In this document: in pieces, positions 1-49,602 of the stretch | Numbering within the stretch: the stretch's first letter is position 1 | Layout of the letters: every line of letters starts with the position of its first letter | DNA from: Escherichia phage Henu4_2 | DNA: 50,260 nucleotides | Direction: 5' to 3' (one strand) | Sequence record: PQ159479 | Position numbers and translations under genes: made by a program | Notes under the pieces: model-generated | What the model saw: only the letters and a program-made list of their open reading frames with translations | What the model was told of the DNA's origin: nothing | Database searches by the model: none

Positions 1-474
1 ATGGAAAACATGAGCTTTACCGAAAAACTACGCGAGGCAGCAAAGGCGCTTGCCAGTGGCGAGAAAAGCGAAATCGTGATCCCAACTGGCTACCTAGCTA
101 CTGAATTAGCCGGAAAGAAATCATCTGAGAATCCGGCTTCATACGTGCGCACCACTATGTCACGAGTGCCGGAAGTAAAAATGGTTGGCACTATCAAGAT
201 CAAAAAGACAATGTGCGACGATGACGAAAGTAACCTTTTCGGCATGGAAGTATTCAAGATCACACTCACGCATGAGAAGCGGAAAACGGTTTATAGCAAG
301 GCTGACGTTGAACGGCACAAGCGCCAGGCAGTGAACAAGGCAGCAGAGCGCTTTATGACGCTATCGCCAAACCTGGCAAACTATGCGCCGGAAGAATACG
401 CAACCGTAGCAAAAGTAATGCAAGAGCTTCATGCACTTGTGAAAATCAACTTTGTCAACAATGAGGATGAATAA
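1..474 (+). CDS. hypothetical early protein (gene 1; RBS and promoter lie at the 3' end of the window)
   Basis: 157-aa ORF starting at position 1; AGGAGA 7 nt upstream if the sequence is circularised; no recognisable motif. Confidence 0.5.
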   Translation: MENMSFTEKLREAAKALASGEKSEIVIPTGYLATELAGKKSSENPASYVRTTMSRVPEVKMVGTIKIKKTMCDDDESNLFGMEVFKITLTHEKRKTVYSKADVERHKRQAVNKAAERFMTLSPNLANYAPEEYATVAKVMQELHALVKINFVNNEDE

Positions 475-723
475 ATGGAAAACTTTGATTTAGAAGCATT
501 AATGGCAACAATCGACACGACAAGCGCAACGCAGTTTAACGTTGTGCGCCTTATAAACCTGGATGCAGCAGAAATAACGCTTGACCAGTTCAAAGAAATG
601 TTAAGCCAGGCCAAGAGCATTTATGAATCAGAAGAAGATCACGAAATCACCGTTATCTGCGTACAGCCGCGAGAGGATGAAAACACATTCCTTTACGCCT
701 TTGTGAATGAGGGTAATGCATAA
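475..723 (+). CDS. hypothetical protein
   Basis: 82-aa ORF starting 1 nt after the preceding stop; acidic. Confidence 0.45.
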   Translation: MENFDLEALMATIDTTSATQFNVVRLINLDAAEITLDQFKEMLSQAKSIYESEEDHEITVICVQPREDENTFLYAFVNEGNA

Positions 724-956
724 TGCTTTGTAAGATCCGCTTTAATGGTGTAGACCTACTGAAAGAGTCCAGGATGTGTACCACTGCAATTGTTAATCGC
801 CTATATCTAAGAAGTGGCGGCAACATAGTAAAGCTGGAATATCGTTCCGGTCGCATAATCCGCACAGACACCGGAAGATGCATAGAAACTAATGAATTGC
901 TATGGCACAACGCAAAAGGCCGTTTGCTTTTCAAAACTTTTGAGGATATCCGCTGA
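723..956 (+). CDS. hypothetical protein
   Basis: 77-aa ORF, start overlaps preceding stop. Confidence 0.35.
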   Translation: MLCKIRFNGVDLLKESRMCTTAIVNRLYLRSGGNIVKLEYRSGRIIRTDTGRCIETNELLWHNAKGRLLFKTFEDIR

Positions 957-1063
957 TGAAAACATTCGCATTTATCGCTGCAATGTGGTGCGTCTTAATC
1001 GGATCTCCTTTCGTGGCGCTTATTGTGCTTGTCTTGATATTGTTGGGGGCGTTTGATGAATAA
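956..1063 (+). CDS. small hydrophobic peptide (35 aa, single predicted TM)
   Basis: ATG overlapping upstream stop (TGATG), GAGGAT RBS, hydrophobic core IAAMWCVLIGSPFVALIVLVLILL. Confidence 0.3.
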   Translation: MKTFAFIAAMWCVLIGSPFVALIVLVLILLGAFDE

Positions 1064-1169
1064 GAAACTTTTAGATCATGCTGTTGTGTTCTTTATTGCT
1101 GCTGCTGGATTTTCATTGTTGTCAATTGCTTTTTCAATCCTAGCGTTTGCCGTGTCAATGCTGAAATGA
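1056..1169 (+). CDS. small hydrophobic peptide (37 aa, single predicted TM)
   Basis: GGGGG RBS, hydrophobic core VVFFIAAAGFSLLSIAFSILAFAV. Confidence 0.3.
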   Translation: MNKKLLDHAVVFFIAAAGFSLLSIAFSILAFAVSMLK

Positions 1170-1191
1170 TGATTTGCATTCTGATTGGTAA

Positions 1192-1235
1192 ATAGCACTT
1201 TTTGTTAAAACTGAATCGGGGTAGTTTGGCATAAT
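1192..1235 (+). promoter_or_regulatory. conserved early element copy 1 (motif + stem-loop GGGGTA/TACCCC containing CATAAT)
   Basis: ATAGCACTTTTTGTTAAAA then -10-like CATAAT 22 nt after TTGTTA; ATCGAAAC leader; ATG at 1267. Confidence 0.5.
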
Positions 1236-1266
1236 TACCCCATCGAAACACAACGGAGAAAATAAA

Positions 1267-1527
1267 ATGCAATTCGAACTAACCCGCGTAACTGTTGAAA
1301 TTCTGAATGACGGAACCTATGACGGAATGAAACATTTAACATTCCCGATCCGAATTGAGAATTGCCTTGATTATGGCGTTGAAGTCGGGATGGTTGACGT
1401 TCCTCTTGATGCCCTGGTTGCGGCTGGTTATGACAAGGTAAAAGGCCGCATGTGTGAAATTCCTGATTGCATGGATAGTGACACGTTTTTACCGTTCAGC
1501 TATGGCGAATGCCGGATTGTTAAGTAA
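1267..1527 (+). CDS. hypothetical protein
   Basis: 86-aa ORF downstream of early element, RBS GGAGAA. Confidence 0.5.
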   Translation: MQFELTRVTVEILNDGTYDGMKHLTFPIRIENCLDYGVEVGMVDVPLDALVAAGYDKVKGRMCEIPDCMDSDTFLPFSYGECRIVK

Positions 1528-1601
1528 GGAGCAACAAATGAGCAGTTGGCACAATGAGCACGTAATGCAATTCTACCGCCAAAGAATAAAGAAAATGCTC
1601 A

Positions 1602-1645
1602 ATAGCACTAATTGCTAAAACTAAATCGTGGGTATTTGATAAAGT
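1602..1645 (+). promoter_or_regulatory. conserved early element copy 2 (stem GGGTA/TACCC, TAAAGT)
   Basis: ATAGCACTAATTGCTAAAA; TAAAGT 22 nt after TTGCTA, preceded by TG. Confidence 0.5.
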
Positions 1646-1681
1646 ACCCACCGTTGAGTTAAGCAAAATGAGAAACAAACC

Positions 1682-2245
1682 ATGTTAAACATCAATAAAA
1701 TCAACTTCCCGATCACATTCAATGCCGGAATGGCTGGAAAGATAACATTTGCAAACGATCAGGATGGTGGCGTTTGGGAGAACGGAGAGAAAAGTGACTT
1801 CAAACTAAGCTACTTTGTAAAACAGCATAACCACCACAACATTCACAACAAAGTTGGTGCGCGATATCACTACGAAATGGCTGAGCCACGGAGAGAGCAA
1901 GACGACCAGGTTGACGCGCTGCAATATCTTCTTTCACGCGGCTGTGAGCTTTTCATTGGCGATGTGAAAATCAACAACGAGCTTATTGATGATACTGTAA
2001 AAGCTAATCGTGATATGTTCTGCAACATTGAGTGCATGCCAGTTGGCGCTACCATCCTGGCTATCAAGCGCAGTGCAGAAGGTTGGGACGATGTTACATT
2101 CACACCGCGCCGAATTGAGATTCACGATGATATGATCACATTGCTTTCCGGCTATGCTGGCGGCTATAGCAAAGATGGAAACAATTACGCACTTGAAATT
2201 AACATTAAGCGCGGCACGAAAGTAAAATACAGCACGAATTGCTAA
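1682..2245 (+). CDS. hypothetical protein
   Basis: 187-aa ORF; its stop codon lies inside the next motif copy. Confidence 0.55.
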   Translation: MLNINKINFPITFNAGMAGKITFANDQDGGVWENGEKSDFKLSYFVKQHNHHNIHNKVGARYHYEMAEPRREQDDQVDALQYLLSRGCELFIGDVKINNELIDDTVKANRDMFCNIECMPVGATILAIKRSAEGWDDVTFTPRRIEIHDDMITLLSGYAGGYSKDGNNYALEINIKRGTKVKYSTNC

Positions 2246-2272
2246 AATAGAATCTTGGGGTTGCGGTATAGT
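2229..2272 (+). promoter_or_regulatory. conserved early element copy 3 (stem GGGGTT/AACCCC, TATAGT)
   Basis: ACAGCACGAATTGCTAAAA; TATAGT 22 nt after TTGCTA. Confidence 0.5.
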
Positions 2273-2304
2273 AACCCCACGCCAAACGAAAGAAGGAAAT
2301 CAAA

Positions 2305-2589
2305 ATGAAATTAGCACGTAACGCTGTTTATGCAATCACAACTGAATTTAATAACGCAAATAACTTTGTTCACATCAATAAAAACGGGAAAATTAATCCG
2401 TTCTTTCTTGAAAAACACGGCTTTGATGTTCACGGAGAATTGCGCAATCATCCAGAGGGTTTACACGAGCATTGGAACGGAGCAATTAATTCATTCAAGT
2501 GCGTAATGGTTCAGAGTCACGTGACAAAGCCAAGCGAAGTAGATTTTAAGAAGTGCCGCAAGTTTGCTCGAAATTATAACCGCAAGTAA
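2305..2589 (+). CDS. hypothetical protein
   Basis: 94-aa ORF with RBS AGAAGGAAA. Confidence 0.5.
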   Translation: MKLARNAVYAITTEFNNANNFVHINKNGKINPFFLEKHGFDVHGELRNHPEGLHEHWNGAINSFKCVMVQSHVTKPSEVDFKKCRKFARNYNRK

Positions 2590-2632
2590 TAGCACAAAAT
2601 GTTAAGCGGCCATGTGTCCTGATGGGTATAAT
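2588..2632 (+). promoter_or_regulatory. degenerate early element copy 4 (GGTA-TAAT-TACC palindrome around TATAAT)
   Basis: TAATAGCACAAAATGTTAAGC then TATAAT at 2627-2632; ATCAACCAAC leader. Confidence 0.4.
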
Positions 2633-2664
2633 TACCGCATCAACCAACCAAAGGAGAAGTAAAA

Positions 2665-2772
2665 ATGTCTAAAGAGTCTATCAAGCAGTTTCTGAAATAC
2701 GGTTCTATGATTGTGCTCGCTACCGTTGTTCTGGCTGGCATCGCTTATAGCATTATTGAGTTTGCGGGGTAA
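2665..2772 (+). CDS. small membrane peptide (35 aa)
   Basis: strong RBS AAGGAGAAG; hydrophobic core MIVLATVVLAGIAYSII. Confidence 0.4.
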   Translation: MSKESIKQFLKYGSMIVLATVVLAGIAYSIIEFAG

Positions 2773-3336
2773 TTGATGTTTACGGTCAACTTATGGGGAA
2801 GGGATTACGTTAATCCCTATGTTGTGACAAAACAGCGTTTCGTTATTTTCGACCTAGACGGCACATTGTCAAATGGTGAGCACCGCTTGCACCTGTTGCC
2901 AACTGTTGACTTGCACCTTACTGAAAGCTGGAGTGAGTTTAACCGCGCGGCTAAGGATGATTTACCATTCAGCAATAACATTGCCGTGTGCAACGCCATG
3001 TTTGATGCCGGATACCTGGTTATCATCCTAACAGGCCGTAGCGATGAAGTAGAGGCTGAAACACGCGCCTGGCTAGCTGAAAACGGCGTTTCTTTCGATT
3101 GGCTGATTATGCGCCGCGCCAGCGATAACCGGAAAGATACCGTAATCAAAGAGGAAGTTTTACGGACTATAGGACTTGATCGCATTGTCGCATGTTGGGA
3201 TGACTCACCAAACGTTATTGCACACCTGCGCGGCCTGGGATTGACGGTTTACCAGGTCATTGACTACGGAGAGCAGTTACACGATCACTTAAGGTCTCAC
3301 GGAGTGGAGAAGTTGAGCGATGATTCAAACGCATGA
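2773..3336 (+). CDS. HAD-superfamily phosphatase (PNK-3'-phosphatase-like)
   Basis: HAD motif I FVIFDLDGTL near N-terminus; 187 aa. Confidence 0.65.
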   Translation: MMFTVNLWGRDYVNPYVVTKQRFVIFDLDGTLSNGEHRLHLLPTVDLHLTESWSEFNRAAKDDLPFSNNIAVCNAMFDAGYLVIILTGRSDEVEAETRAWLAENGVSFDWLIMRRASDNRKDTVIKEEVLRTIGLDRIVACWDDSPNVIAHLRGLGLTVYQVIDYGEQLHDHLRSHGVEKLSDDSNA

Positions 3337-3420
3337 TCCAATTGCGCTTGCCTGGGGAGTTGGTGCTTTTATCGTGGCGGTTGTGATTTGCTTATGGGAT
3401 ATCAACAGGAGGGATAGATA

Positions 3421-3609
3421 ATGCATTCAAAGAATATTCAGGATCGGCATGGTGACAATATTCTTGTTTACAGTCGCGGTGAATCAGTCTGGATTGATTG
3501 TAAATATGACGACGACACCAAATTGCAGTTTCGCGCCATATTAGACAAGAAAAGCGCAAGAGAATTAGCGGATCATATAAAGCGGCTTGCTGATGAATTG
3601 CCTTATTAA
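3421..3609 (+). CDS. hypothetical protein
   Basis: 62-aa ORF, RBS CAGGAGGGA; stop immediately before motif copy 5. Confidence 0.45.
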   Translation: MHSKNIQDRHGDNILVYSRGESVWIDCKYDDDTKLQFRAILDKKSARELADHIKRLADELPY

Positions 3610-3653
3610 ATAGCACTTTTTGCTAAAACTTGCTAAGGCACATTTGATAAAGT
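3609..3653 (+). promoter_or_regulatory. conserved early element copy 5 (8-bp stem AAGGCACA/TGTGCCTT, TAAAGT)
   Basis: AATAGCACTTTTTGCTAAAA; TGaTAAAGT 22 nt after TTGCTA. Confidence 0.5.
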
Positions 3654-3687
3654 GTGCCTTGTCGAGACAAGCAAAGGAGAATGACAA

Positions 3688-3999
3688 ATGAAAGTATTTA
3701 CAACTGTTGGATTTAGAACTAACCATTATTACATTGTTAACGATGACGGCGTTATTTTTGCCTCACAAAAACCGTTCTTTGATGGTGATAATTTTTTCAA
3801 GAGCGTATTTCAATCGCCTGGTGTTTTGGTAAGTATGTGCAATCGTGGCTCGTTAGCGCCGTACAATAAAGAGGCGAAGGATTTTGTTGATAAAGTTAAC
3901 GGTGTAAAAACAAAGCGCGAAATGAATAAACACGTTATCGCCGTTATCGTTTGTGTGGCAATTGCCGTTGGTTCTATTTTCATGGGGGTTTGGTCATGA
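3688..3999 (+). CDS. hypothetical protein with C-terminal TM segment
   Basis: 103-aa ORF, RBS AAAGGAGAA; C-terminal hydrophobic VIAVIVCVAIAVGSIFMGVW. Confidence 0.45.
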   Translation: MKVFTTVGFRTNHYYIVNDDGVIFASQKPFFDGDNFFKSVFQSPGVLVSMCNRGSLAPYNKEAKDFVDKVNGVKTKREMNKHVIAVIVCVAIAVGSIFMGVWS

Positions 4000-4178
4000 C
4001 ACTTGATAATAAATTAGAAACACAAAAGACGATCAACTATCTGCGAGCGCTTGCTGATGCTCTTGAATCTGGCGAGGCCGCATTAAATGATGTTGGTATT
4101 GAGTCAAGAAATCACGGATGGACTCAGATCGAAGAAACATTAACCGTTCAATATTTTAAGGTGAATAAAGATGGCTAA
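3996..4178 (+). CDS. hypothetical protein
   Basis: 60-aa ORF starting ATGA-overlapped with preceding stop. Confidence 0.4.
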   Translation: MTLDNKLETQKTINYLRALADALESGEAALNDVGIESRNHGWTQIEETLTVQYFKVNKDG

Positions 4179-4746
4179 AATTATCATCCTTAATGCGCCT
4201 CCTGGTGCTGGTAAAGATACGATAGGCAAGATGATTTCTTTCTATTCGCCAGGCGAGCAATGCCGCATTATTAGCTTTAAAGAGCCGATGTTTGACATTG
4301 CATTAGCTATCCTGGGTAAAGAGAACTATCAGCGCTTCATGTTGGCTTATGATGACAGAGAGCAGAAAGAAAGGCCGCAAACATTCCTGATGGGTATGTC
4401 ACCGCGTGAGTTCATGATATGGATTAGCGAGGATGTAATCAAACCTAAATTCGGCAAGGATTATTTCGGCGTAAGGTTTAACCAGAAAGTAAAAGAGTGT
4501 GATGCTCCTGTTGTTTGCACTGATGGAGGTTTCCCAGATGAAATTATCGCGCTAATCAATGCTGGTAATGAAGTGAAGCTATGCCGCTTGCATCGCGACG
4601 GGTTCACGTTTGCAGGTGATAGCCGCAACTACATTCGAATCAATCCATACTACCAGAAAAACGGATATAGTGAACACGATTACTTATTAACCAATGAAAA
4701 GCCGATGATTACAGTTAGCGAAATCATTCGCGATCACCTTAAATAG
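4171..4746 (+). CDS. P-loop nucleotide kinase (dNMP-kinase-like)
   Basis: Walker A NAPPGAGKDT at N-terminus, resembling phage dNMP kinases; 191 aa. Confidence 0.6.
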   Translation: MAKIIILNAPPGAGKDTIGKMISFYSPGEQCRIISFKEPMFDIALAILGKENYQRFMLAYDDREQKERPQTFLMGMSPREFMIWISEDVIKPKFGKDYFGVRFNQKVKECDAPVVCTDGGFPDEIIALINAGNEVKLCRLHRDGFTFAGDSRNYIRINPYYQKNGYSEHDYLLTNEKPMITVSEIIRDHLK

Positions 4747-4786
4747 CACGAATTGCTAAAACTTGCGCAAGGCCATTTGATATAGT
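4743..4786 (+). promoter_or_regulatory. conserved early element copy 6 (stem AAGGCCA/TGGCCTT, TATAGT)
   Basis: ATAGCACGAATTGCTAAAA; TGaTATAGT 22 nt after TTGCTA. Confidence 0.5.
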
Positions 4787-4824
4787 GGCCTTATTCAAGA
4801 GAAGCTACCAATCAGGAGAAAGTC

Positions 4825-5055
4825 ATGAAATACCAGATTTACAGCGCCATCGATGCAATCGACGATGCACAAAGCCTTTTCATGTTCGACGAAAATGACA
4901 ACTACACGGTTGTGTGTGATTGCTACACTGATGCAGATTATCTTGAGCAGTTAGCTCGCAACGGTGAAGGTTGTAATTGGAGCGACAACAAAAATGAAAC
5001 TCCACGTCGCCAAGATATGATCAATCCGGTTCTGGTTAAAGAGTTTGAGGTGTGA
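4825..5055 (+). CDS. hypothetical protein
   Basis: 76-aa ORF, RBS CAGGAGAAAG. Confidence 0.45.
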   Translation: MKYQIYSAIDAIDDAQSLFMFDENDNYTVVCDCYTDADYLEQLARNGEGCNWSDNKNETPRRQDMINPVLVKEFEV

Positions 5056-5057
5056 TA

Positions 5058-5252
5058 ATGAAAATCAAATGCACAATGTCAAATACGGACGCGCTTACAG
5101 TCGGGAAAGTTTACGATGTAACGCCAGCGGAGGAAGGGTTTAGCCCAACCGTTAAGCACGACAGTAAAGGGTTTTATTATCTCAATGGCAAAGATAATCT
5201 TTCTATCCTGGTGGTTAAGGCTGTAATTGCAGAATTTGAGGCGGTGGAATGA
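5058..5252 (+). CDS. hypothetical protein
   Basis: 64-aa ORF (ATG at 5058, RBS GAGGTG). Confidence 0.45.
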   Translation: MKIKCTMSNTDALTVGKVYDVTPAEEGFSPTVKHDSKGFYYLNGKDNLSILVVKAVIAEFEAVE

Positions 5253-5431
5253 TTAGGCACTTAATTATTTTTGCGATGGTGCTTTTAGGTACAATGCTTA
5301 TTGATAACGACACATGGGCTACTGCAATTGGAGGTTGTTTGCTTTTTGTTGCTGGCGGCATGTTTGGTGAGAATGAGGCAAAAAAGGAAAATAAACTTTC
5401 CGATCACTTACGCAAGGAGACTAAACGATGA
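5249..5431 (+). CDS. small membrane protein
   Basis: 60 aa with two hydrophobic stretches; ATGA overlap with upstream gene. Confidence 0.4.
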   Translation: MIRHLIIFAMVLLGTMLIDNDTWATAIGGCLLFVAGGMFGENEAKKENKLSDHLRKETKR

Positions 5432-5673
5432 ACAGAAAAATGCTTGTTCGCGCCTTTGCTAAAATTTCTAAAAGGTGGGGAGACTCTAACAAATCGCCTT
5501 ACACATTTAGCCGTTACGGTTATAAAAACGCTCGCGCCTGGGGTCGCTGCATTGCGGATAACTACAACGCCGAAATGCTGGAAGATTTCGCAAAGTGGAT
5601 TGATACGCCTTTGAAGGATTGGTGTCAATTTGACTATGACTATTTCGCAGAAGAAGAAATTTCTTGTTGGTAA
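5428..5673 (+). CDS. hypothetical protein
   Basis: 81-aa ORF, RBS AAGGAGA. Confidence 0.45.
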   Translation: MNRKMLVRAFAKISKRWGDSNKSPYTFSRYGYKNARAWGRCIADNYNAEMLEDFAKWIDTPLKDWCQFDYDYFAEEEISCW

Positions 5674-5684
5674 GGAGAGTAAAC

Positions 5685-6182
5685 ATGATCGCTAAAAATG
5701 ACCTTTGCAACCTGTTAACGGCTGGTAATGATTATCAGGTTTTGAATAGCACAAAAGACCGTTATTTTATTGAGTGTGACAATGGGGATCGCATGTGGCT
5801 TAAAAAAGGCTTTTTCGAAAGTGAGCATCTATGCAATGCAAAGCGAATCGCAGATGAAGCAAGCGCATTAGCAGAGCGTGAACGAATTCGCGATATAGTA
5901 GCGGAGCAGGTTAGAAATTCATGTTTGCCTGGTGGCGATATCTTCAAATCAATGCGCGGTGAAATGACGGTTGGAATTCAAGATCGCGTAATTGAAAAAT
6001 CAGTTGATCCTGTAATTGAGAATGCGCGATTCAATGCGTTGATTAACTCAGAGACTAACGAATACATTAAAGTGTTAGAGCAACTGCGTGAAGTGCTGCG
6101 AGTGCCGGAAGGTGAAAATATTGTCACTCATGCAAAAGTTGTAAGAGCGTTGGCTGATGCGCTGATTGGTCTGCAAAAATAG
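5685..6182 (+). CDS. hypothetical protein
   Basis: 165-aa ORF from ATG 5685 with RBS AAGGAGAG; stop TAG inside motif copy 7. Confidence 0.5.
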   Translation: MIAKNDLCNLLTAGNDYQVLNSTKDRYFIECDNGDRMWLKKGFFESEHLCNAKRIADEASALAERERIRDIVAEQVRNSCLPGGDIFKSMRGEMTVGIQDRVIEKSVDPVIENARFNALINSETNEYIKVLEQLREVLRVPEGENIVTHAKVVRALADALIGLQK

Positions 6183-6222
6183 CACTTTTTGTTAAAACTT
6201 CCGCGAGGGCATTTGTTAAAGT
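6179..6222 (+). promoter_or_regulatory. conserved early element copy 7 (TGtTAAAGT)
   Basis: ATAGCACTTTTTGTTAAAA; TAAAGT 22 nt after TTGTTA; weak GAGG/CCTC stem. Confidence 0.45.
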
Positions 6223-6256
6223 ATCCTCATTGAAGCGAAACACGGAGATTTAGGAA

Positions 6257-6466
6257 ATGGCTGTATACACTGGCAAAATGTTTGAAAGCGAAAACCCGAT
6301 TTACGGCGGCACTTATGAGCTAATCATTGATGAAGATCGTGTAATCCTAGCTGACGACGATAACCAGGAATATTACGAAGTAGAAGCCGATAAATGGGAT
6401 AACGACGTTATGTTTCTTGTTGATAATAGCCGAATCAAGTTTTATGCAGTGGAGGAAGAAGAATGA
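6257..6466 (+). CDS. hypothetical acidic protein
   Basis: 69-aa ORF, RBS GGAGATTTAGGAA. Confidence 0.45.
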   Translation: MAVYTGKMFESENPIYGGTYELIIDEDRVILADDDNQEYYEVEADKWDNDVMFLVDNSRIKFYAVEEEE

Positions 6467-6714
6467 TCACAATTAACCTATCAGAAGAACAAGCGAAATC
6501 ATTGTTGCGCGGCATGGGCTGGCGAATGGGTAGCGGTAGCGAGGCGGTTGTAAACATCAAAGAGGAAGTAGCAAAAGAGCTTTTTGCACAGCTTGAGCAT
6601 AAACTTATGCCAGCCTCAACAAGCGCGGCGGAGTTGGCAGTGTGGCGGCATGAAAACGGCCTTAATGAAATGGATGTTGAGAAGTGGAAGCGTAAAAACG
6701 AGGTGATGCAATGA
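6463..6714 (+). CDS. hypothetical protein
   Basis: 83-aa ORF, ATGA overlap. Confidence 0.45.
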   Translation: MITINLSEEQAKSLLRGMGWRMGSGSEAVVNIKEEVAKELFAQLEHKLMPASTSAAELAVWRHENGLNEMDVEKWKRKNEVMQ

Positions 6715-7139
6715 TTTATATTCATAGTTACGGCGTTGGTAAGTTTGGCAACAAGCAGATCCGAAATATTTACGACACTCTCGATGAAGCAATGGCACAG
6801 CAACGCGTTTTAGGTGGAGTTGTTCAGGCTTACGCAAAAGAGCCGGAAGTAAGAAAGCAACACGCAGAGTGGAGCGATAAAACATTTGGCGGCATTGATA
6901 AGATCGGGGCAATCGGACCACTTAAACACCTTGCTAAAGAGGCAATGGAGGCAGCAGAAAATCCAGGTGATTTATCAGAATGGGCTGATATGCAGTTTTT
7001 GTTATGGGACGCGCAAAGACGCGCAGGAATAACCGATGAACAGATAATCAATGCGATGATTGAGAAACTTAAAATAAACAAAGAAAGGTCTTGGCCTGAA
7101 CCTAAAGACGGCGAGCCGCGACACCATTTAAAAATTTAA
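6711..7139 (+). CDS. DUF550-like protein (MazG-like nucleotide pyrophosphohydrolase fold candidate)
   Basis: pattern EW..KTFG ... HL.KE..E ... DL.EWAD ... N.ERSWP matches my recollection of the DUF550 family. Confidence 0.45.
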   Translation: MIYIHSYGVGKFGNKQIRNIYDTLDEAMAQQRVLGGVVQAYAKEPEVRKQHAEWSDKTFGGIDKIGAIGPLKHLAKEAMEAAENPGDLSEWADMQFLLWDAQRRAGITDEQIINAMIEKLKINKERSWPEPKDGEPRHHLKI

Positions 7140-7160
7140 CGAATTTGAATCAAATTTAAA

Positions 7161-7199
7161 GCGCCTCAATAGCATTCTAAGGGGCGCTAATTTTGGAAA
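7161..7199 (+). terminator. putative intrinsic terminator (imperfect hairpin + T-rich tail)
   Basis: GCGCCTC...GGGGCGC followed by TAATTTTGG. Confidence 0.3.
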
Positions 7200-7208
7200 G
7201 GTGATTGT

Positions 7209-7337
7209 ATGCCTAACTACATAAAACCGTCGCAGTGGTGCGCACAGAAGCAAGAGGAAGCGTTAGAGCGCGGCGACACTGACACAGCATTGCACTATTT
7301 TGAAATGTACCAACTTTGGAAATCAAGAGGAATGTAA
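7209..7337 (+). CDS. small hypothetical protein (42 aa)
   Basis: short ORF, RBS AAAGGTGA. Confidence 0.3.
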   Translation: MPNYIKPSQWCAQKQEEALERGDTDTALHYFEMYQLWKSRGM

Positions 7338-7338
7338 A

Positions 7339-7566
7339 ATGTTTGGACTTAATGAGGCTGAATACAACATTGTTAAACGTGCTGCAAAAGAGTGCATGAA
7401 GGATCTGAAAGTTGAAGTGACAAGTGGCAACAAATACGATCATATTGCGGCTGGAATTATCACCAAACATCACACGCCAATTTCTACCCTAATCACTCGA
7501 ACAAAGTTTGTATGGCTTGCTGGCTATATTGCTGGTCGATGGGGTAAGCCTGGCGAGTATGAATAA
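7339..7566 (+). CDS. hypothetical protein
   Basis: 75-aa ORF from ATG 7339, RBS AGAGGAA. Confidence 0.4.
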   Translation: MFGLNEAEYNIVKRAAKECMKDLKVEVTSGNKYDHIAAGIITKHHTPISTLITRTKFVWLAGYIAGRWGKPGEYE

Positions 7567-7588
7567 TAAGCACTTGAATCAATGAAGG

Positions 7589-7617
7589 TTGACGGCGTGT
7601 TGTCTGATTGGTAGATT
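7589..7617 (+). promoter_or_regulatory. sigma70-like promoter (TTGACG-17-TAGATT) with -10 inside a 5-bp inverted repeat
   Basis: TTGACG 7589-7594, 17-nt spacer, TAGATT 7612-7617; GGCGT/ACGCC arms flank the -10. Confidence 0.4.
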
Positions 7618-7748
7618 AAACGCCGTGAACATAAGAGGCTCAATAGAGCAAAGCGCGGCGCGTTAGCCGTAAAACTTAATCGGATTGGATCGCAAGGCGA
7701 ATGACAATCGCGGGAGCCGTAACCCGCAACCGTTCAGGAGAATTCACA

Positions 7749-7910
7749 ATGCAAAACAAAGAAATCGCAAAGGTAACAATCATCGTTGAGCGCGAAGGAA
7801 AGAAAACGCGATATAAAAAGCGATTCAAGAAAGGCGAGGCGGTGTTAGGTCGCATTGGTGATTTTATGGTTAAGTTACAAGAGGACAAGCCTGATGAAGT
7901 GGAAAGTTAA
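7749..7910 (+). CDS. hypothetical basic protein
   Basis: 53-aa ORF from ATG 7749, RBS CAGGAGAA. Confidence 0.4.
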   Translation: MQNKEIAKVTIIVEREGKKTRYKKRFKKGEAVLGRIGDFMVKLQEDKPDEVES

Positions 7911-8082
7911 ACTTACTATCAGGCGCATGGGTCGCAATTGCGGATCATGCAAGCAAGATTTTGAATGCGAGGTTGACGCAAGAGGCGCTCTTGAGGCGGC
8001 AGCAAGAGCTAAAGAGCTTTCGGGCGCTAACCCTGATACACACCAATTTTCAATTAATTACGTGAGGGAAATATCATGCTGA
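7894..8082 (+). CDS. hypothetical Cys-containing protein
   Basis: 62-aa ORF (MKWKVKL...CGSCKQDFEC). Confidence 0.4.
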   Translation: MKWKVKLTIRRMGRNCGSCKQDFECEVDARGALEAAARAKELSGANPDTHQFSINYVREISC

Positions 8083-14600: not shown

Positions 14601-14649
14601 TGTTCTAACACAAAAAACACTTGAACGTTTAACAAAAAATGCTATATTA

Positions 14650-24495: not shown

Positions 24496-24543
24496 TACAT
24501 GTACAATGGCAGCACGTTTAAATAGCACAAAAGGTTAAAAGCT

Positions 24544-29836: not shown

Positions 29837-29879
29837 ATAGCACTTTTTGCTAAAAATGCCATTATATGCGTGGTATACT
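29837..29879 (+). promoter_or_regulatory. conserved early element copy 8 (stem GCGTG/CACGC, TATACT)
   Basis: ATAGCACTTTTTGCTAAAA; TGgTATACT; ATCAACCAAC leader. Confidence 0.5.
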
Positions 29880-29913
29880 ACACGCATCAACCAACGAGAG
29901 AGAGGAAATAAAA

Positions 29914-35091: not shown

Positions 35092-35149
35092 TTCTCAATC
35101 TCCAAATAAAAAACCTGGCACGATGATAAACCATGCCAGGCCGGAATTT

Positions 35150-35758
35150 TTAGCAATCAGTGCTATCGACGGAAATCACAACGCGTTTCTTCTGATTGGC
35201 TTCCTTTGCTTTGCGCCGTTCTTCTTTCTCCTTGTCGCGTTCAGCCTTGCGCCGCGCTTTCTCCTTCTCGCGTTCTTCTGGAGTCATAGACCGTAACGGA
35301 TCGTAAGGCCGGACAAATCCCCTTGCTTCCGCTTCCTCTTTGGTTACAAATCGCATCAGCTTTCTGTTGCTGCAACGATTCTCTAATGGTTTTCCGTTAT
35401 TATCAAACTTGATATCTGGACGGCAATATGAAGCGCGAAAACCGTTAAAACCTTTGCGGCGGTAATCTTTCTGGATCAGTTCAGCGCCTTTAGTTGAAAT
35501 CATGCCGCGCTCTTTCCATCCCCATACTGTTTTAAGGTTAACGCCAATTTCACGCGCCAGGGCAGCGCAACCGCCGTAAGCGTTGACAACTTCATCAAGA
35601 CGCGCTTTTAATCCGGCTCTTACTTCTTCCTTTAATACAAGATAACCGCTAACAGGTGCGCGACGTTTGCGATCTTTACCACGTCTTACGCCGTTGTTAC
35701 CATTGATTGTGCGTTTGTCGATTTCGCCAGTTGAGGCGGCAATTTTGATTTCGCTCAT
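35150..35758 (-). CDS. HTH DNA-binding protein with polybasic C-terminal tail (putative regulator)
   Basis: HTH-like CAALAREIGVNLKTVWGWKERG; C-terminal KR/E-rich; start at ATG 35758 with RBS AGGTGA. Confidence 0.55.
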   Translation of the reverse strand: MSEIKIAASTGEIDKRTINGNNGVRRGKDRKRRAPVSGYLVLKEEVRAGLKARLDEVVNAYGGCAALAREIGVNLKTVWGWKERGMISTKGAELIQKDYRRKGFNGFRASYCRPDIKFDNNGKPLENRCSNRKLMRFVTKEEAEARGFVRPYDPLRSMTPEEREKEKARRKAERDKEKEERRKAKEANQKKRVVISVDSTDC

Positions 35759-35768
35759 ATTTTCACCT

Positions 35769-35811
35769 ATAGCACTTTTTGCTAAAAAACTTGATTGAGT
35801 TTGTGTATGAT
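35769..35811 (+). promoter_or_regulatory. conserved early element copy 9 upstream of helicase operon
   Basis: ATAGCACTTTTTGCTAAAA then TATGAT. Confidence 0.5.
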
Positions 35812-35835
35812 ATGCCGCAAATGGCATTTAGTCAA
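35807..35835 (-). promoter_or_regulatory. sigma70 promoter for HTH gene (TTGACT-17-TATCAT), -10 overlapping the plus-strand -10
   Basis: minus-strand TTGACT (35835-35830), 17-nt spacer, TATCAT (35812-35807). Confidence 0.6.
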
Positions 35836-35846
35836 AAGGATAAAAA

Positions 35847-37820
35847 ATGATTCCTAACATTGAAAAGCAGATTGCAGATCTTGGAGAGGAAAGGATTAAG
35901 GCAATACAGAAGCGTTTCACGGTTGGTGAGATTGTCCCGTATGAATACCAATGCGTTGCTTACGCTGAAATTGCAAAGCGCTTGAGTAAGTATGTTGATC
36001 CGTTTTTCGTAAAAGCGGCGGTATCGGCAGGTAAAACAATCATCTTTGCTATGGTTGCGGCTCAGTGCCGTAAAATGGGGTTGAAAGCGTTATTTCTGGC
36101 GCGTCAATCTGAAATTGTGGATCAGGATTCAAAAGAGATTAGCGCCTTTGGTGTTCCGAATTCCGTTTATTGCGCTGGCCTGAATACCAAAAGCGCTTAT
36201 TTCCCGATTGTTGTCGGATCGGAAGGCACTGTAATTGGTGGATTGAATAAAGCGTTGGGTGATTACGTCCCACAGGTTTTAGGTATAGATGAATGCCATC
36301 AAGTAAACTGGAATGACATTGTGGAAGCCGAGGAAAACGGCGAAAGCATAGAGCAAATGATGACTCCGAAAGGTGAACCAGTTGAAGGGCATCCGTTGCT
36401 GATTGGTTCAGGCCGCGCACAATACACCATTATCATTGCAGAAATGCGCCGCCGTTGCCTTGAGACTTACGGTCATCAGTTGCGCATATTTGGAATGACA
36501 GGATCGGAATATCGCGGAATTGAGCCGATACTTGTCGAAGATAAAAGAATTCCTGGGTTTTGGCGTGAGCAGATCACAAACATTGATACTGATTACTTGG
36601 TTAAATTTGGTTCAGTTGTTCCCACTTATTTTGGCAATGTTGGTGATTTGGGTTATGACTTATCAGAATTTACGCCAGTACATGAATTTGGCGTTGCTGA
36701 TTATGACCAGAAGCAATTAAAGGCAATGAGTGACAAGATTCACAAATCAGGAACCATGACGCAGAAAATAATGCAGATGGTTCATGAGGTGATGAAAAAC
36801 CGCTTGTGCGCTCTTGTTACTTGCGCTGACGAAAGGCACTGCAAAGAGGCGGCGGCGGCGCTTCCTCCTGGCACGAAATATCACATTATCACCGGAAAAA
36901 CTGGAGAGAAACAGCGGCGCTTATGGCTTGAGGATGCCTATGAAGGGCGCGTGAAATACATATTCCAGGTTCAAGCGCTAACAACTGGAGTGAACGTTCC
37001 GCCGTGGGATACTTCTGTTATTTTGCGTAAGATCGGAAGCCTGACGCTATTAACTCAGCTTTTGGGGCGCGGTATGCGTCAATTAAAAACTTACCATAAA
37101 GAAGTATTGGGAATGCACAAAACGGATCACCTTGTTTTGGATTTTTCCGGCACGATGTTTGAAATGGGTAATTTGTATTTCGATCCGATGTTAGAGCAAG
37201 CGCAATTCCAGTTGCGTAAATCACAGGATAAAGATCCGAAATATTGCCCGATTTGCGGCACAGAAAATTCATTCTATGCTCGCCGTTGCATTAATGAAGA
37301 TGAAAACGGAAATCGTTGTGAGCACTTTTGGACTTTTCAAACGTGTGAGGATCAGATTGATGACCGCACAAAGAAAATAACGGTAAAAGGTTGTGGTGCT
37401 AAAAATGACGTTGCGGCGCGTGTATGCCGTTGCTGTAATGTTCAGTTACGCGATCCAAATGATAACTTATCCGGCAAGATGTACCGTAAAAACGATTGGT
37501 GCGACGTGTTAGATTTTAATGTGACGCTGACAAAAAACCAGGCTGGGGTAATATTCTGCTACACGTTGCGTGATAGTGGCGGCGTAGAATTCAGGGCATA
37601 CGAAAAATATTTCCCTGAATCAGAACACAAGATATGTAAAACGCTTTGGACAAAGGCGGTTAGAACACACGTTATAGATCGCCAGGCCGCAAACTTTATG
37701 ATCACTTGCAGAAATGCAATTAAGATCATGAGTTATGCTGGGCAAATATTGCCACCAAAACGTGTTACCCATCGCAAGAACACAAAGAAAGAAGATTTGA
37801 TCGCACAGAAGGAGTTTTAA
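35847..37820 (+). CDS. superfamily II DEAH-type helicase with C-terminal zinc-ribbon region
   Basis: Walker A AAVSAGKT, motif II GIDECHQ; C-terminal CPICGT...C..C cluster. Confidence 0.85.
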   Translation: MIPNIEKQIADLGEERIKAIQKRFTVGEIVPYEYQCVAYAEIAKRLSKYVDPFFVKAAVSAGKTIIFAMVAAQCRKMGLKALFLARQSEIVDQDSKEISAFGVPNSVYCAGLNTKSAYFPIVVGSEGTVIGGLNKALGDYVPQVLGIDECHQVNWNDIVEAEENGESIEQMMTPKGEPVEGHPLLIGSGRAQYTIIIAEMRRRCLETYGHQLRIFGMTGSEYRGIEPILVEDKRIPGFWREQITNIDTDYLVKFGSVVPTYFGNVGDLGYDLSEFTPVHEFGVADYDQKQLKAMSDKIHKSGTMTQKIMQMVHEVMKNRLCALVTCADERHCKEAAAALPPGTKYHIITGKTGEKQRRLWLEDAYEGRVKYIFQVQALTTGVNVPPWDTSVILRKIGSLTLLTQLLGRGMRQLKTYHKEVLGMHKTDHLVLDFSGTMFEMGNLYFDPMLEQAQFQLRKSQDKDPKYCPICGTENSFYARRCINEDENGNRCEHFWTFQTCEDQIDDRTKKITVKGCGAKNDVAARVCRCCNVQLRDPNDNLSGKMYRKNDWCDVLDFNVTLTKNQAGVIFCYTLRDSGGVEFRAYEKYFPESEHKICKTLWTKAVRTHVIDRQAANFMITCRNAIKIMSYAGQILPPKRVTHRKNTKKEDLIAQKEF

Positions 37821-37822
37821 AT

Positions 37823-38230
37823 ATGGTTACTGACAAAGGCGATTATCTGGAGTATTACAACAAATCAGATCCAGACGATAGGAAGGAGGAAGCGCACCAG
37901 GTTGATTCTTATTCATGGCTAACATATGAGTTTACAATGTGGCTTGTTTGGCACACTAAAAACGAGGGGAAGAAAACCATAGGCACAGCCGTAAAGGATC
38001 AGCAAGCGGGTGTGAAAAAGGGAGTTAGCGACATTCTAATTCTGACTGGTTTTATTGGCTGCAAGTATTCATTTATAGCCATTGAGCTTAAACGCGCCAA
38101 CAAGAAAGGCACGAAAGTAAGCCAGGAGCAAAAGGAATTCTTACGACGCGTTAGGGAATGCGGAGGATTTGCCGCCGTATGCTATGGCGTAGAGCAAGTA
38201 AAATTGGCTATCGCAGACGCTACAAAATAG
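37823..38230 (+). CDS. VRR-NUC domain nuclease
   Basis: GVSDILIL...IAIELKRANKKGTKVSQEQKEF matches the VRR-NUC D..E.K and SxEQ pattern. Confidence 0.75.
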   Translation: MVTDKGDYLEYYNKSDPDDRKEEAHQVDSYSWLTYEFTMWLVWHTKNEGKKTIGTAVKDQQAGVKKGVSDILILTGFIGCKYSFIAIELKRANKKGTKVSQEQKEFLRRVRECGGFAAVCYGVEQVKLAIADATK

Positions 38231-38270
38231 CACTTTTTGTTAAAACAGGCGCAACGGAATGCGCCATAAT
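38226..38270 (+). promoter_or_regulatory. conserved early element copy 10 (stem GGCGC/GCGCC, CATAAT)
   Basis: ATAGCACTTTTTGTTAAAA; CATAAT 22 nt after TTGTTA; AACGAAACGGAG leader. Confidence 0.5.
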
Positions 38271-38301
38271 GCACCCATCAGAACGAAACGGAGAATTAAC
38301 C

Positions 38302-38580
38302 ATGAAAAAGATGTTATCAGTAGTTGCTTTATCACTTGCCCTTGTCGGTTGCATGGATAAACCAAAAACATATATTTGCGGAAATGAAGCGTTTGAGGTT
38401 GCAAGCGACTATATGAAAGTTGTAAGCGGTCCGAGCACAGGCGTTGTAATGGATAATATCAGCAAAAATCAATATAAGCTGTTTACGCCAATTGGGACGG
38501 CTTATTACACTGTTAACGATAACACCATTGATATTAAAGTTGGCGTTTATCAGCACACTCTAACTTGCGAGGTAAAATAA
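38302..38580 (+). CDS. outer-membrane lipoprotein (superinfection-exclusion candidate)
   Basis: lipoprotein signal MKKMLSVVALSLALVGC (lipobox LVGC); 92 aa. Confidence 0.6.
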   Translation: MKKMLSVVALSLALVGCMDKPKTYICGNEAFEVASDYMKVVSGPSTGVVMDNISKNQYKLFTPIGTAYYTVNDNTIDIKVGVYQHTLTCEVK

Positions 38581-38581
38581 A

Positions 38582-39319
38582 ATGGCTAAGGATTTTCAGG
38601 ACAAAGCAACCATTGATACTTTTGAGCCGGAAATGGATTTTCATGAATTGCAACACGGAAGATATTCAGATATTGCGCTGCGTTCAGGTGGTCATTATCA
38701 GCCAGTTAGAGAAAACACGTTTTTGAAGGTTAGCGGCAACCGTTATGCAGGAAGTAAAACGCCGGACGTTGTGCGCGATTTGTGGGAAACGCCAGATGAA
38801 ATTGTTGATTATCTTGCTGAACGTTACGGCAAATATGATCTTGATGCAGCCGCAACAGAAGATAATAAAAAATGCGATAAGTTTTACAGCAAAGAAACAA
38901 ACTGTTTAAAGCGTTGGTGGGGTAGCAATAAGCATGTTTGGCTTAATCCGCCATACAGCAATCCAGATCCGTTTGTGTTAAAAGCAATTGAGCAGATGGA
39001 ACACGGAAACCAGATTGATATTTTACTTCCGGCTGACAACTCAACCGCATGGTTTAGCGATGCACAAAAACACGCGGCGGAAATTATCTGGATCACTGGC
39101 GAAACATGGGAAGAAGAAGGAAAACAATATTCCCGCACTGGTCGAGTGTCGTTTATTTCTGGCATGACAGGTGAGCAAGTTAGTGGAAACAATAAAGGAA
39201 GCGTGATTTTTATCATGCGCCAACTGAAAGAAGGTGAGCAACAACAAACTCATTATGTGCCAATTAGTGAAATTTGCCCTTCTGTTAAGAACAAACGCAC
39301 AAAAGCGCGGAGTATTTAA
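38582..39319 (+). CDS. dam: DNA N6-adenine methyltransferase (Dam-like)
   Basis: catalytic NPPY motif in WLNPPYSNP. Confidence 0.8.
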   Translation: MAKDFQDKATIDTFEPEMDFHELQHGRYSDIALRSGGHYQPVRENTFLKVSGNRYAGSKTPDVVRDLWETPDEIVDYLAERYGKYDLDAAATEDNKKCDKFYSKETNCLKRWWGSNKHVWLNPPYSNPDPFVLKAIEQMEHGNQIDILLPADNSTAWFSDAQKHAAEIIWITGETWEEEGKQYSRTGRVSFISGMTGEQVSGNNKGSVIFIMRQLKEGEQQQTHYVPISEICPSVKNKRTKARSI

Positions 39320-39321
39320 AG

Positions 39322-39588
39322 ATGGAAAAGATTGAAACTATTGTTGAAAATGGCGTTGAATATCGACGCGTTGAATTAACTGAACGTGGTTTATGGTTGC
39401 TTTATCGCGCTATGGTGTGCGATGCGATAGAAAAGGCGAATGAAACTGAAACAGTAGGATCTGATTTGTGGATGTTCACAGATGTGCTTGATATGAGTTT
39501 TGATGAAACAAAAGAGCTTGTATTGAGCAAGTGGGAAGAAAAGATAAATCAAGATCTAAAAGAATTTTTAGCAGATCCGAATAAATAG
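39322..39588 (+). CDS. hypothetical protein
   Basis: 88-aa ORF, stop inside motif copy 11. Confidence 0.45.
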   Translation: MEKIETIVENGVEYRRVELTERGLWLLYRAMVCDAIEKANETETVGSDLWMFTDVLDMSFDETKELVLSKWEEKINQDLKEFLADPNK

Positions 39589-39628
39589 CACTTTTTGTTA
39601 AAAATGCCCCGCTTATGTGGGGCATAAT
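39584..39628 (+). promoter_or_regulatory. conserved early element copy 11 (stem ATGCCCC/GGGGCAT, CATAAT)
   Basis: ATAGCACTTTTTGTTAAAA; CATAAT; TTCAACGAAACGAAACGAGGA leader. Confidence 0.5.
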
Positions 39629-39660
39629 CATTTCAACGAAACGAAACGAGGATTTGTAAA

Positions 39661-40048: not shown

Positions 40049-40141
40049 AAACAATTAAATTCATGTTTGCTGTTGTCTTGCCGCCAATGCTGGCATGGTT
40101 TATGATGTACGCCATTGTTATGAAATAAGAGGATTTGTGAA

Positions 40142-41257: not shown

Positions 41258-41369
41258 TTAAATTATCACATAAAAAGGCTGGCTAAATGCTGGCCTTTTT
41301 TTGTTTTTGTCGTTAACATAATCAGACTGTTTTTTGATATTGACTTTTTAATTTTTAAGGGATCTAGTT

Positions 41370-43005: not shown

Positions 43006-43007
43006 GA

Positions 43008-44603: not shown

Positions 44604-44659
44604 TTGTTGCCGCTAATTATAACGGCAACATTCTACAGCCTTTTAGCAATTCGTGCTAT
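44604..44659 (-). promoter_or_regulatory. conserved early element (minus), stem GTTGCCG/CGGCAAC with TATAAT in loop
   Basis: minus-strand ATAGCACGAATTGCTAAAA then hairpin with TATAAT; RBS AAGGAG. Confidence 0.5.
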
Positions 44660-45263: not shown

Positions 45264-45294
45264 TTGATTTATCTCCTTTTGTTTTCGTTGAAAG

Positions 45295-45339
45295 CATTAT
45301 GCCGGATACGTGATCCGGCGTTTTAACAAAAAGTGCTAT
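45295..45339 (-). promoter_or_regulatory. conserved early element (minus), stem GCCGGAT/ATCCGGC, CATAAT
   Basis: minus-strand AATAGCACTTTTTGTTAAAAC + hairpin + CATAAT + TTCAACGAAAAC leader. Confidence 0.5.
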
Positions 45340-46678: not shown

Positions 46679-46709
46679 TTTTGATTCTCCATTTTGTTTG
46701 TGTGAAAGT

Positions 46710-46757
46710 ATGATACCAATCAGAGCGATATCGTTTTTAGCAATTCGTGCTGTTTAC
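46710..46757 (-). promoter_or_regulatory. conserved early element (minus), TGgTATCAT
   Basis: minus-strand ACAGCACGAATTGCTAAAAA then extended -10 TGGTATCAT. Confidence 0.5.
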
Positions 46758-47609: not shown

Positions 47610-47640
47610 TTTTAAATTCTCCGGTTCGTTTCGATGAATG

Positions 47641-47686
47641 CATTATGCCAAAACAAACCGGATCGCTTTTAACAAAAAGTGCTATT
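47641..47686 (-). promoter_or_regulatory. conserved early element (minus), CATAAT
   Basis: minus-strand AAATAGCACTTTTTGTTAAAAGC ... GGCATAATG ... TTCATCGAAACGAACC leader. Confidence 0.5.
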
Positions 47687-48515: not shown

Positions 48516-48545
48516 CGTTGATTCTCCTTATTGGTTGATGTGTGT

Positions 48546-48590
48546 ATTATGCCGGATTGCTCAGGCGATGTTTTAACAAAAAGTGCTATT
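48546..48590 (-). promoter_or_regulatory. conserved early element (minus), CATAAT
   Basis: minus-strand AATAATAGCACTTTTTGTTAAAAC ... GGCATAATAC ... ATCAACCAATAAGGAG. Confidence 0.5.
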
Positions 48591-49015: not shown

Positions 49016-49040
49016 TGCTAAATCCTCATTTCGTTTCGAT

Positions 49041-49093
49041 GGGATAACTATATCAAGTTACCCCGATCCGGTTTTAACAAAAAATGCTATTTA
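49041..49093 (-). promoter_or_regulatory. conserved early element (minus), stem GGGGTAAC/GTTATCCC with TATAGT in loop
   Basis: minus-strand AAATAGCATTTTTTGTTAAAAC + hairpin + ATCGAAACGAAATGAGGA. Confidence 0.5.
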
Positions 49094-49525: not shown

Positions 49526-49556
49526 CGTGAATTCCTCAGTTCGTTTCGATGAAGTA

Positions 49557-49602
49557 ATCATAGCAATTCGTGACTGATTGGTTTTAACAAAAAGTGCTAT
49601 TC
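49557..49602 (-). promoter_or_regulatory. conserved early element (minus) with adjacent half-copy, TATGAT
   Basis: minus-strand GAATAGCACTTTTTGTTAAAACC followed by CACGAATTGCTATGAT and TTCATCGAAACGAAC leader. Confidence 0.5.

Follow-up and report, generated by a model that had tools for sequence, protein, structure and literature searches.

A recurrent element ahead of early and middle genes of the T1-like Escherichia phage Henu4_2 resembles the marbox of class II promoters

What is the role of a short, directionally repeated element that recurs at the gene boundaries of a lytic phage, and which protein, if any, reads it? The question is raised by Escherichia phage Henu4_2 (sequence record PQ159479), in which an element of about 20 bp stands ahead of early genes in the left arm (positions 1,192 to 6,222 of the window, by which we mean the whole analysed stretch of 50,260 bp). 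An earlier note on this DNA had considered either promoters with an extended -10 and an upstream element foreign to sigma70, or a binding or processing site. We consider it probable, judging from the sequence, that the copies form class II promoters dependent on Mar/Sox/Rob and served by the activators of the host. The repeat itself is already published, from phage TLS in 2024, but its assignment to the marbox is new and addresses a question which that paper listed as open. The window amounts to essentially the whole genome, circularly permuted, of a T1-like siphophage (Drexlerviridae, Tls-like). Over its first 8 kb, identity is 97.5% to Salmonella phage KKP 3830 and 96% to YSP2; with the archetype, Escherichia phage TLS, 58% of this left-arm query aligns, at 89% identity.

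All seven left-arm copies listed previously were recovered, as 21-mers starting at 1191, 1601, 2228, 2588, 3609, 4742, and 6178; allowing up to 3 mismatches, 14 copies of the 21-mer are found in the window, where 0.01 would be expected. The element is not restricted to the left arm, as had been supposed. Genome-wide, we found 19 cassettes, each consisting of a 20-bp box followed by a -10-like hexamer, and 12 of them lie beyond the left-arm seven, with boxes starting at 29837, 35769, 38227, and 39585 on the plus strand and at 35166, 44659, 45339, 46753, 47685, 48589, 49090, and 49600 on the minus strand. The plus strand thus carries 11 cassettes (1192 to 39585) and the minus strand 8 (35166 to 49600). 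Without exception, their orientation is that of the downstream gene, with 71–82 nt from the start of the box to the start codon. No complete cassette is present in the late structural block, where the only boxes are two orphans that lack a -10, at 14645 (-) and 24522 (+). The observation that the upstream stop codon lies within the box or 1–2 nt ahead of it held for all seven left-arm copies, and in 18 of the 19 cassettes the stop of the upstream gene is overlapped or abutted by the box, either as TAG at box positions 2–4 (ATAGCAC), as TAA at positions 15–17 (GYTAAAA), or as TAA abutting the box. The box therefore supplies the preceding stop codon, so that gene ends are fused to the starts of the putative promoters and no intergenic DNA is left over.

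The 20-mer, ATAGCAC-N5-GYTAAAAC, agrees with the marbox consensus of E. coli. The marbox is the asymmetric site for monomeric MarA, SoxS, and Rob and has been published as AYnGCACnnWnnRYYAAAY, as GCAHWWWWTGYYAAA, and as gcannwwntgnnaaa. Exact matches to the 15-mer GCAHWWWWTGYYAAA number 14 in the window, compared to 0.17 in dinucleotide shuffles, and the 20-mer AYnGCACnnWnnRYYAAAYn with at most 1 mismatch is found 21 times against 1.67. As a guard against circularity, sites were collected in five genomes (the window, T1, TLS, Rtp, and KP36) with the anchors TAGCA and TAAA alone, and the free positions of the resulting 82 sites were then read. Of these, 79 carry A at position 1, 71 carry C and 10 carry T at position 7, 81 carry W at position 10, 80 carry R at position 13, and 79 carry Y at position 14, with C in 38 and T in 41. 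Since the free positions follow the consensus, the variable positions of the phage copies are the degenerate positions of the marbox. The core had been described earlier as a palindrome, TAGCA-N5-TGCTA. This is exact in 3 of the 7 left-arm copies (1603, 3611, and 4744), whereas the other 4 carry TGTTA or ACAGCA. Moreover, the split between C and T at position 14 stands opposite an invariant G at box position 4, which argues against a symmetric dimer site; with its asymmetric flanks as well, a dimer operator of this form was rejected.

The distance between box and hexamer is equally constrained. As stated previously, a -10-like hexamer lies precisely 22 nt past TTGYTA, that is, 18 nt past the 20-mer box, in all 7 left-arm copies (CATAAT once, TAAAGT 3 times, TATAGT twice, and TATAAT once), and a TG at -15/-14 precedes it in 5. 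Over the whole genome the distance is 18 bp in 17 of the 19 cassettes and 17 bp in the remaining 2. When 79 sites were chosen by the box alone in the five genomes, TANNNT was found at an offset of 18 in 50 sites and of 17 in 7, all other offsets accounting for 6 sites or fewer each. The logo of 65 cassettes displays TAtaaT at -12 to -7, G at -14 (54/65), T at -15 (31/65), a C-rich discriminator, and A at +1 (56/65), followed by an A-rich leader and GGAG. Its -35 window reads AAAACn at -35 to -30, with 2–3 matches out of 6, and holds no usable -35 hexamer. Consistently, a scan of positions 1–8000 for canonical -35/-10 pairs returned 13 sites compared to 16 expected, none of them at a cassette, in line with the earlier view that the spacing is unfit for such a pair; with TTGYTA 22 bp from the -10, the canonical sigma70 -35/-10 promoter was rejected as an identity. 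Of the two alternatives left by the earlier note, the promoter, in which the -10 is often extended and the upstream element differs from a sigma70 -35, agrees with the fixed 18-bp spacing in five genomes, the G at -14, the A at +1, and the lack of a canonical pair, whereas a processing site is not supported as the main function. The 5′ leader is also conserved across cassettes (for example, 1242-1266 and 38277-38301), with A at +1, TCGAAACGAAAC, and GGAG(A/G) 6–9 nt before the ATG. As the leader is common to T1, Rtp, and KP36, the duplicated module takes in the translation-initiation region.

The closest counterpart is the micF promoter, the class II paradigm, in which the box is centred at -41.5 in forward orientation and overlaps the -35, and for which cryo-electron microscopy structures with SoxS and with Rob are available. 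Read in E. coli K-12, micF consists of the box ACAGCACTGAATGTCAAAAC, 18 bp, TAGAAT, and the known start G 8 nt further on. The phage cassettes share with it the 20-bp asymmetric box with GCAC and YAAA blocks, the forward orientation, the 18 bp to the -10, the poor -35, and the A at position 19. With the phage -10 hexamer numbered -12 to -7, the positions contacted by Rob on micF (-47G, -45A, -38G, -37T, and A:T at -35/-34) are invariant in the phage or, at -37, Y. The probable box of inaA likewise lies 18 bp from TATAGT. In Salmonella, which is the likely host, MarA, SoxS, Rob, and RamA share one motif, with class II sites near -41, in forward orientation and with no recognisable -35. Collectively, the sequence features expected of a class II marbox promoter, namely the box match, the forward orientation, the overlap with the -35 at the micF distance, and a poor or absent -35 combined with a sigma70 -10, are found in the phage cassettes.

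The comparison also brings out differences. Whereas micF is one gene of the host, with sites that are degenerate and regulated, the phage has about 19 copies, nearly identical and close to the consensus, which precede most of its early and middle genes, and each of these is fused to the preceding stop codon and to a hairpin. The marbox of marRAB (class I, backward), ATGCCACGTTTTGCTAAATC, is identical to the phage consensus at 16 of 20 positions but has the reverse orientation and is followed downstream by a genuine -35. Middle promoters of phage T4 also lack a -35 and combine an activator box (the TGCTT-like MotA box) with a -10; the MotA box is centred at about -30, 11–13 bp from the -10, and requires the phage proteins MotA and AsiA. 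In the phage cassettes, by contrast, 22 bp separate the TGYTA block from the -10, and the host encodes the candidate activator. A T4 MotA box was rejected for its wrong distance to the -10. Rejected as well was a sigma54 promoter (TGGCAC-N5-TTGCW), for which the phage element has AG in place of GG, a GC doublet 2 nt too close, and T at position 15 in half of the copies. Sites for OmpR or ArcA, which the element resembles only loosely, were set aside too.

A search for the motif in related phages, suggested by the earlier note, revealed the same architecture in T1 (Tunavirinae), TLS (Tempevirinae), Rtp (Braunvirinae), and KP36 (Webervirus, infecting Klebsiella), with roughly 12–20 cassettes in each. 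The box, the 18 bp, and the -10 are kept across these phages while the spacer sequences are unrelated, and the forward orientation relative to the downstream gene holds in T1, Rtp, and KP36 too. A scan of viral contigs for the box followed by 18 nt and TANNNT returned at least 120 stretches; among the matches listed, nearly all contigs are 41–52 kb long, which is the size of Drexlerviridae genomes. In TLS, German et al. 2024 (PMC11447400) described a 21-nt direct repeat with the consensus aaATAGCACnnnTTGnTAAAA that occurs in 21 copies, of which 18 are intergenic; it is co-oriented with transcription, located about 76 nt before start codons, and stated to be present also in T1, Rtp, and Rogue1. 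The copies in the window agree with this repeat in consensus, intergenic place, co-orientation, and the distance of about 76 nt, and are the same element. The same study reported only three canonical sigma70 promoters and no phage gene for an RNA polymerase or sigma factor, proposed that the repeats are stoperators, enhancer-binding sites, or UP elements, and listed their function as an open question. It gives no linked -10, +1, marbox match, or embedded hairpins, the repeats and terminators being entered separately in its Table S1. In the literature searched, we found no paper tying marboxes or MarA/SoxS/Rob to T1-like phages and no relevant transcriptome of a T1-like phage.

As a class II marbox promoter, each copy would be read by the sigma70 RNA polymerase of the host as a compact promoter cassette. 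The box ATAGCAC-N5-GYTAAAAC at -50 to -31 would represent a forward class II marbox bound by one monomer of a host activator of the MarA/SoxS/Rob type, to which RamA is added in Salmonella and Klebsiella. The bound activator would replace the missing -35 contact by touching region 4 of sigma70 and the alpha C-terminal domain, the -10 hexamer, often with TGn, would follow 18 bp past the box, and transcription would start at the conserved A 7 nt past the hexamer. Translation would then be driven by the conserved A-rich leader with GGAG, at start codons 71–82 nt from the box. Rob appears to be the likeliest default activator because it is constitutive and abundant and binds the motif most tightly, its affinity being far above that of MarA or SoxS; the latter two and RamA may add input under stress, and the extended -10 of about half of the cassettes may give basal activity. 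A host factor would be economical, since the early cassettes must work before phage proteins exist. Consistently, no homologue of MarA, SoxS, or Rob was detected in the six-frame open reading frames of the window or of T1 with phmmer and a 3-sequence profile (best E = 0.19), and a phage-encoded member of this group was rejected. The conserved regulator of the phage (35150-35759, -) has a weak helix-turn-helix (HTH) of the Cro/YdaS type and is not AraC-type. We infer activator binding, activation, and the transcription start sites from these sequence features.

Several points weigh against such a dependence on the host activators. Rob is reportedly for the most part sequestered, and inactive, unless the cell is stressed, and levels of MarA and SoxS are low in the absence of inducers, yet T1-like phages multiply rapidly in ordinary laboratory cultures. 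Within the box, position 19 is the sole systematic departure from the consensus, with A instead of Y, although the micF box shares this A. The box is also conserved more strictly than host marboxes are, even at the ‘n’ positions A-48, T-40, and T-39, which would also suit a dedicated phage protein. The 18-bp rule is drawn from micF, the probable inaA site, and the -41/-41.5 given in the literature, whereas fumC, another class II promoter of E. coli, has a box in perfect agreement with the consensus but an ambiguous -10. Finally, the TGn extended -10 found in about half of the cassettes could render them partly independent of an activator.

Besides the box, the cassettes contain inverted repeats of variable sequence, for example at 3615-3645, 1198-1241, 38228-38245, and 45338-45321 (-). 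The 36 nt from the end of the box to about +12 fold better than shuffled sequences, with a mean z of -3.0 and z < -2 in 45 of 65 cassettes. Two classes of hairpins can be distinguished: in class 1 the arms lie at -24 to -19 and -6 to -1 with the -10 between them, and in class 2 the hairpin is contained entirely in the 18-bp spacer. An ungapped alignment of 22 class 1 cassettes, which had been picked because they fold, displays double (compensatory) changes at all six core pairs with a clear optimum of register, and 30 compensatory cells compared to 10.5 in shuffles (0 of 500 shuffles reach 30). Several annotated terminators of T1, TLS, and KP36 are these spacer hairpins. At 35116-35166 (-), a strong hairpin with a T7 run ends the regulator gene; it corresponds to the TLS terminator T57 and has the -10 TATCAT in its loop, so that in this cassette, which precedes the primase gene, terminator and promoter are superimposed. 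The scan called no intrinsic terminator at the left-arm copies, most hairpins are without a U-tract, and neither an Rfam family nor a tRNA was found for the element. Since a transcript begun at a cassette cannot hold the full stem, the stems most likely function in read-through RNA of the upstream gene, by terminating it or protecting its 3′ end, or at the level of the DNA.

Other readings of the same features have to be set against class II marbox promoters. One of them accepts the promoters but assigns the box to a different protein, whether encoded by the phage, delivered with the virion, or supplied by the host, and takes the likeness to the marbox as coincidence or mimicry. The conservation of A-48, T-40, and T-39 (about 2 bits), beyond what a marbox needs, speaks for this possibility, as do the HTH regulator kept in all T1-like phages, which in the window (35150-35759, -) has a box on each side, and the GCTA variants, in which the TAGCA-N5-TGCTA palindrome holds. 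However, about half of the sites do not keep the palindrome (38 have C and 41 have T at position 14, with an invariant G as partner), the regulator has a weak Cro/YdaS-like and not an AraC-type HTH, and the early cassettes must fire ahead of any phage protein. Chance, furthermore, would have to yield about 21 bits of consensus together with the orientation and the exact micF spacing. We therefore regard this reading as unlikely, though not negligible. Each of the rival readings explains part of the data, but none accounts for the agreement in sequence, pattern of degeneracy, orientation, and exact micF spacing taken together.

It is more doubtful still that the cassettes are factor-independent extended -10 promoters, with the AT-rich box serving as an UP-like element, as curved DNA, or as a mere translational stop module. 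The G at -14 (54/65) and the T at -15 (31/65) would be accounted for in this way, and the box has T- and A-tracts and gives a stop codon to 18 of 19 upstream genes, but about half of the cassettes are without TG, and a stop-codon role leaves 20 conserved base pairs and the fixed distance to the -10 unexplained. UP elements range from -38 to -59 in the Estrem/Gourse consensus, and the box, extending to -31, falls outside that range. The invariant G, C, A, and C at -47 to -44 and the G at -38 are also unlike UP elements; an UP element, although suggested by the TLS authors (PMC11447400), was rejected on the invariant G/C at -47, -46, -44, and -38 and the reach of the box to -31. Least probable in our view is an element that acts at the RNA level or as a roadblock, be it a ribonuclease processing site, a gene-end terminator module, or a repressor-bound stoperator. 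Its orientation and its location at the 3′ end of the upstream gene would agree with such a function, the stable covarying hairpins adjoin it, some of these are annotated terminators in T1, TLS, and KP36, and stoperators were among the proposals for TLS (PMC11447400). Conversely, the -10 at a fixed offset, the G at -14, and the A at +1 are DNA promoter signals, the conserved blocks are separated by one turn of the helix, as expected where a protein binds duplex DNA, and the phage is virulent, without a repressor or lysogeny module. The scarcity of U-tracts, the absence of terminator calls at the left-arm copies, and the lack of an Rfam family argue in the same direction.

Whether class II marbox promoters describe the entire family is, in our judgment, evenly balanced. 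Drexlerviridae would have ceded the promoter recognition of nearly all early and middle genes to the host Mar/Sox/Rob (and RamA) regulators through about 20 class II marbox promoters per genome, with bile salts, salicylate, oxidants, and antibiotics tuning phage development, and each promoter would be joined to a covarying hairpin by which the transcript of the preceding gene is ended or stabilised. The signals proposed to tune the phage are those that raise TolC, the receptor of TLS. The marbox reading offers a concrete mechanism which is testable with standard reagents (purified Rob, MarA, and SoxS; marA soxS rob mutants). If true, a lytic phage would depend on regulators of host antibiotic resistance, which would bear on phage therapy against mar/ram-upregulated Enterobacteriaceae and on phage-antibiotic synergy. 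It would also help promoter annotation in hundreds of Drexlerviridae genomes and supply very strong natural marboxes for the study of the MarA/SoxS/Rob activators.

The seven left-arm cassettes, all on the plus strand and with 18-bp spacers, are as follows. The cassette at 1192..1242 has the box ATAGCACTTTTTGTTAAAAC (1192-1211), TGgCATAAT (-10 at 1230-1235), a predicted +1 at A 1242, and the start codon at 1267. At 1602..1652, the box ATAGCACTAATTGCTAAAAC is followed by TGaTAAAGT, a predicted +1 at 1652, and the start codon at 1682, and at 2229..2279 the box ACAGCACGAATTGCTAAAAT by TATAGT, a predicted +1 at A 2279, and the start codon at 2305. The B site is degenerate in the cassette at 2589..2639, which combines the box ATAGCACAAAATGTTAAGCG with TATAAT, a predicted +1 at A 2639, and the start codon at 2665. 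In the cassette at 3610..3660 (box ATAGCACTTTTTGCTAAAAC, TGaTAAAGT, predicted +1 at 3660, start codon at 3688), a stem formed by AAGGCACA and TGTGCCTT flanks the -10. The last two comprise the box ATAGCACGAATTGCTAAAAC, TGaTATAGT, a predicted +1 at A 4793, and the start codon at 4825 (4743..4793), and a further copy of ATAGCACTTTTTGTTAAAAC with TGtTAAAGT, a predicted +1 at A 6229, and the start codon at 6257 (6179..6229).

Four more cassettes follow on the plus strand. Two of them share the box ATAGCACTTTTTGCTAAAAA and a 17-bp spacer: the one at 29837..29886, located 3′ of a recE-like gene, has TGgTATACT, a predicted +1 at A 29886, and the start codon at 29914, and the one at 35769..35818 (box at 35769-35788, TATGAT at 35806-35811) precedes a helicase gene with its start codon at 35847. 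The other two have hairpins in their 18-bp spacers and CATAAT as the -10. These are the cassette at 38227..38277, with the box ATAGCACTTTTTGTTAAAAC, the hairpin GGCGCA/TGCGCC, a predicted +1 at A 38277, and the start codon at 38302, and that at 39585..39635, with the box ATAGCACTTTTTGTTAAAAA, a predicted +1 at A 39635, and the start codon at 39661. The spacer is 18 bp in all eight cassettes of the minus strand. The primase gene (start codon at 35091) is preceded by the box ATAGCACTGATTGCTAAAAA and TATCAT (35116..35166), and a DNA helicase gene (start codon at 44588) by ATAGCACGAATTGCTAAAAG and TATAAT (44609..44659). The cassette at 45289..45339 has the box ATAGCACTTTTTGTTAAAAC, the spacer hairpin CCGGAT/ATCCGG, CATAAT, a predicted +1 at A, and the start codon at 45263. 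The remaining five combine ACAGCACGAATTGCTAAAAA with TGgTATCAT (46703..46753, start codon at 46678), ATAGCACTTTTTGTTAAAAG with TGgCATAAT (47635..47685, start codon at 47609), ATAGCACTTTTTGTTAAAAC with CATAAT (48539..48589, start codon at 48515), ATAGCATTTTTTGTTAAAAC with TGaTATAGT (49040..49090, start codon at 49015), and ATAGCACTTTTTGTTAAAAC with TGcTATGAT (49550..49600, start codon at 49525).

Both orphan boxes are kept in relatives. The one at 14626..14645 (-), ATAGCATTTTTTGTTAAACG, has no good -10. This antisense copy is located within the late region, shortly upstream of the major head gene, and has counterparts in T1 (15086-) and TLS (DR7). The other, ATAGCACAAAAGGTTAAAAG at 24522..24541 (+), is without a -10, adjoins the start codon of a J-like tail gene, and is kept in T1 (25021+) and TLS (DR8). 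The box of the helicase cassette (35769-35788) lies inside the 5′ leader of the HTH regulator gene (35150-35759, -), and its -10, TATGAT, overlaps the opposite-strand -10, TATCAT, of a canonical promoter for that gene (TTGACT-17-TATCAT, 35805-35833). This overlap could form a competitive divergent switch.

At the extreme end of the window, a Shine-Dalgarno sequence stands ahead of the ATG at position 1. Shortly ahead of the window junction, at 50200-50228 (+), lies a canonical sigma70 promoter, TTGACT-17-CATAAT, which is equivalent to P01 of TLS and, wrapping to position 1, would serve the first left-arm genes (1-1190), all of which are without a box. These genes may be the only immediate-early genes that are independent of an activator. 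The terminal non-coding region (49609-49638 and 49720-50075) contains two tandem 14-bp palindromes (TAGACCGATTGGTC / TAGACCGTTTGGTC) at 49609-49638, just upstream of the last cassette, as well as short repeats of the TGATTTGATTAGATT type and TATATA-rich blocks, all of which are possible candidates for operator, origin, or pac signals.

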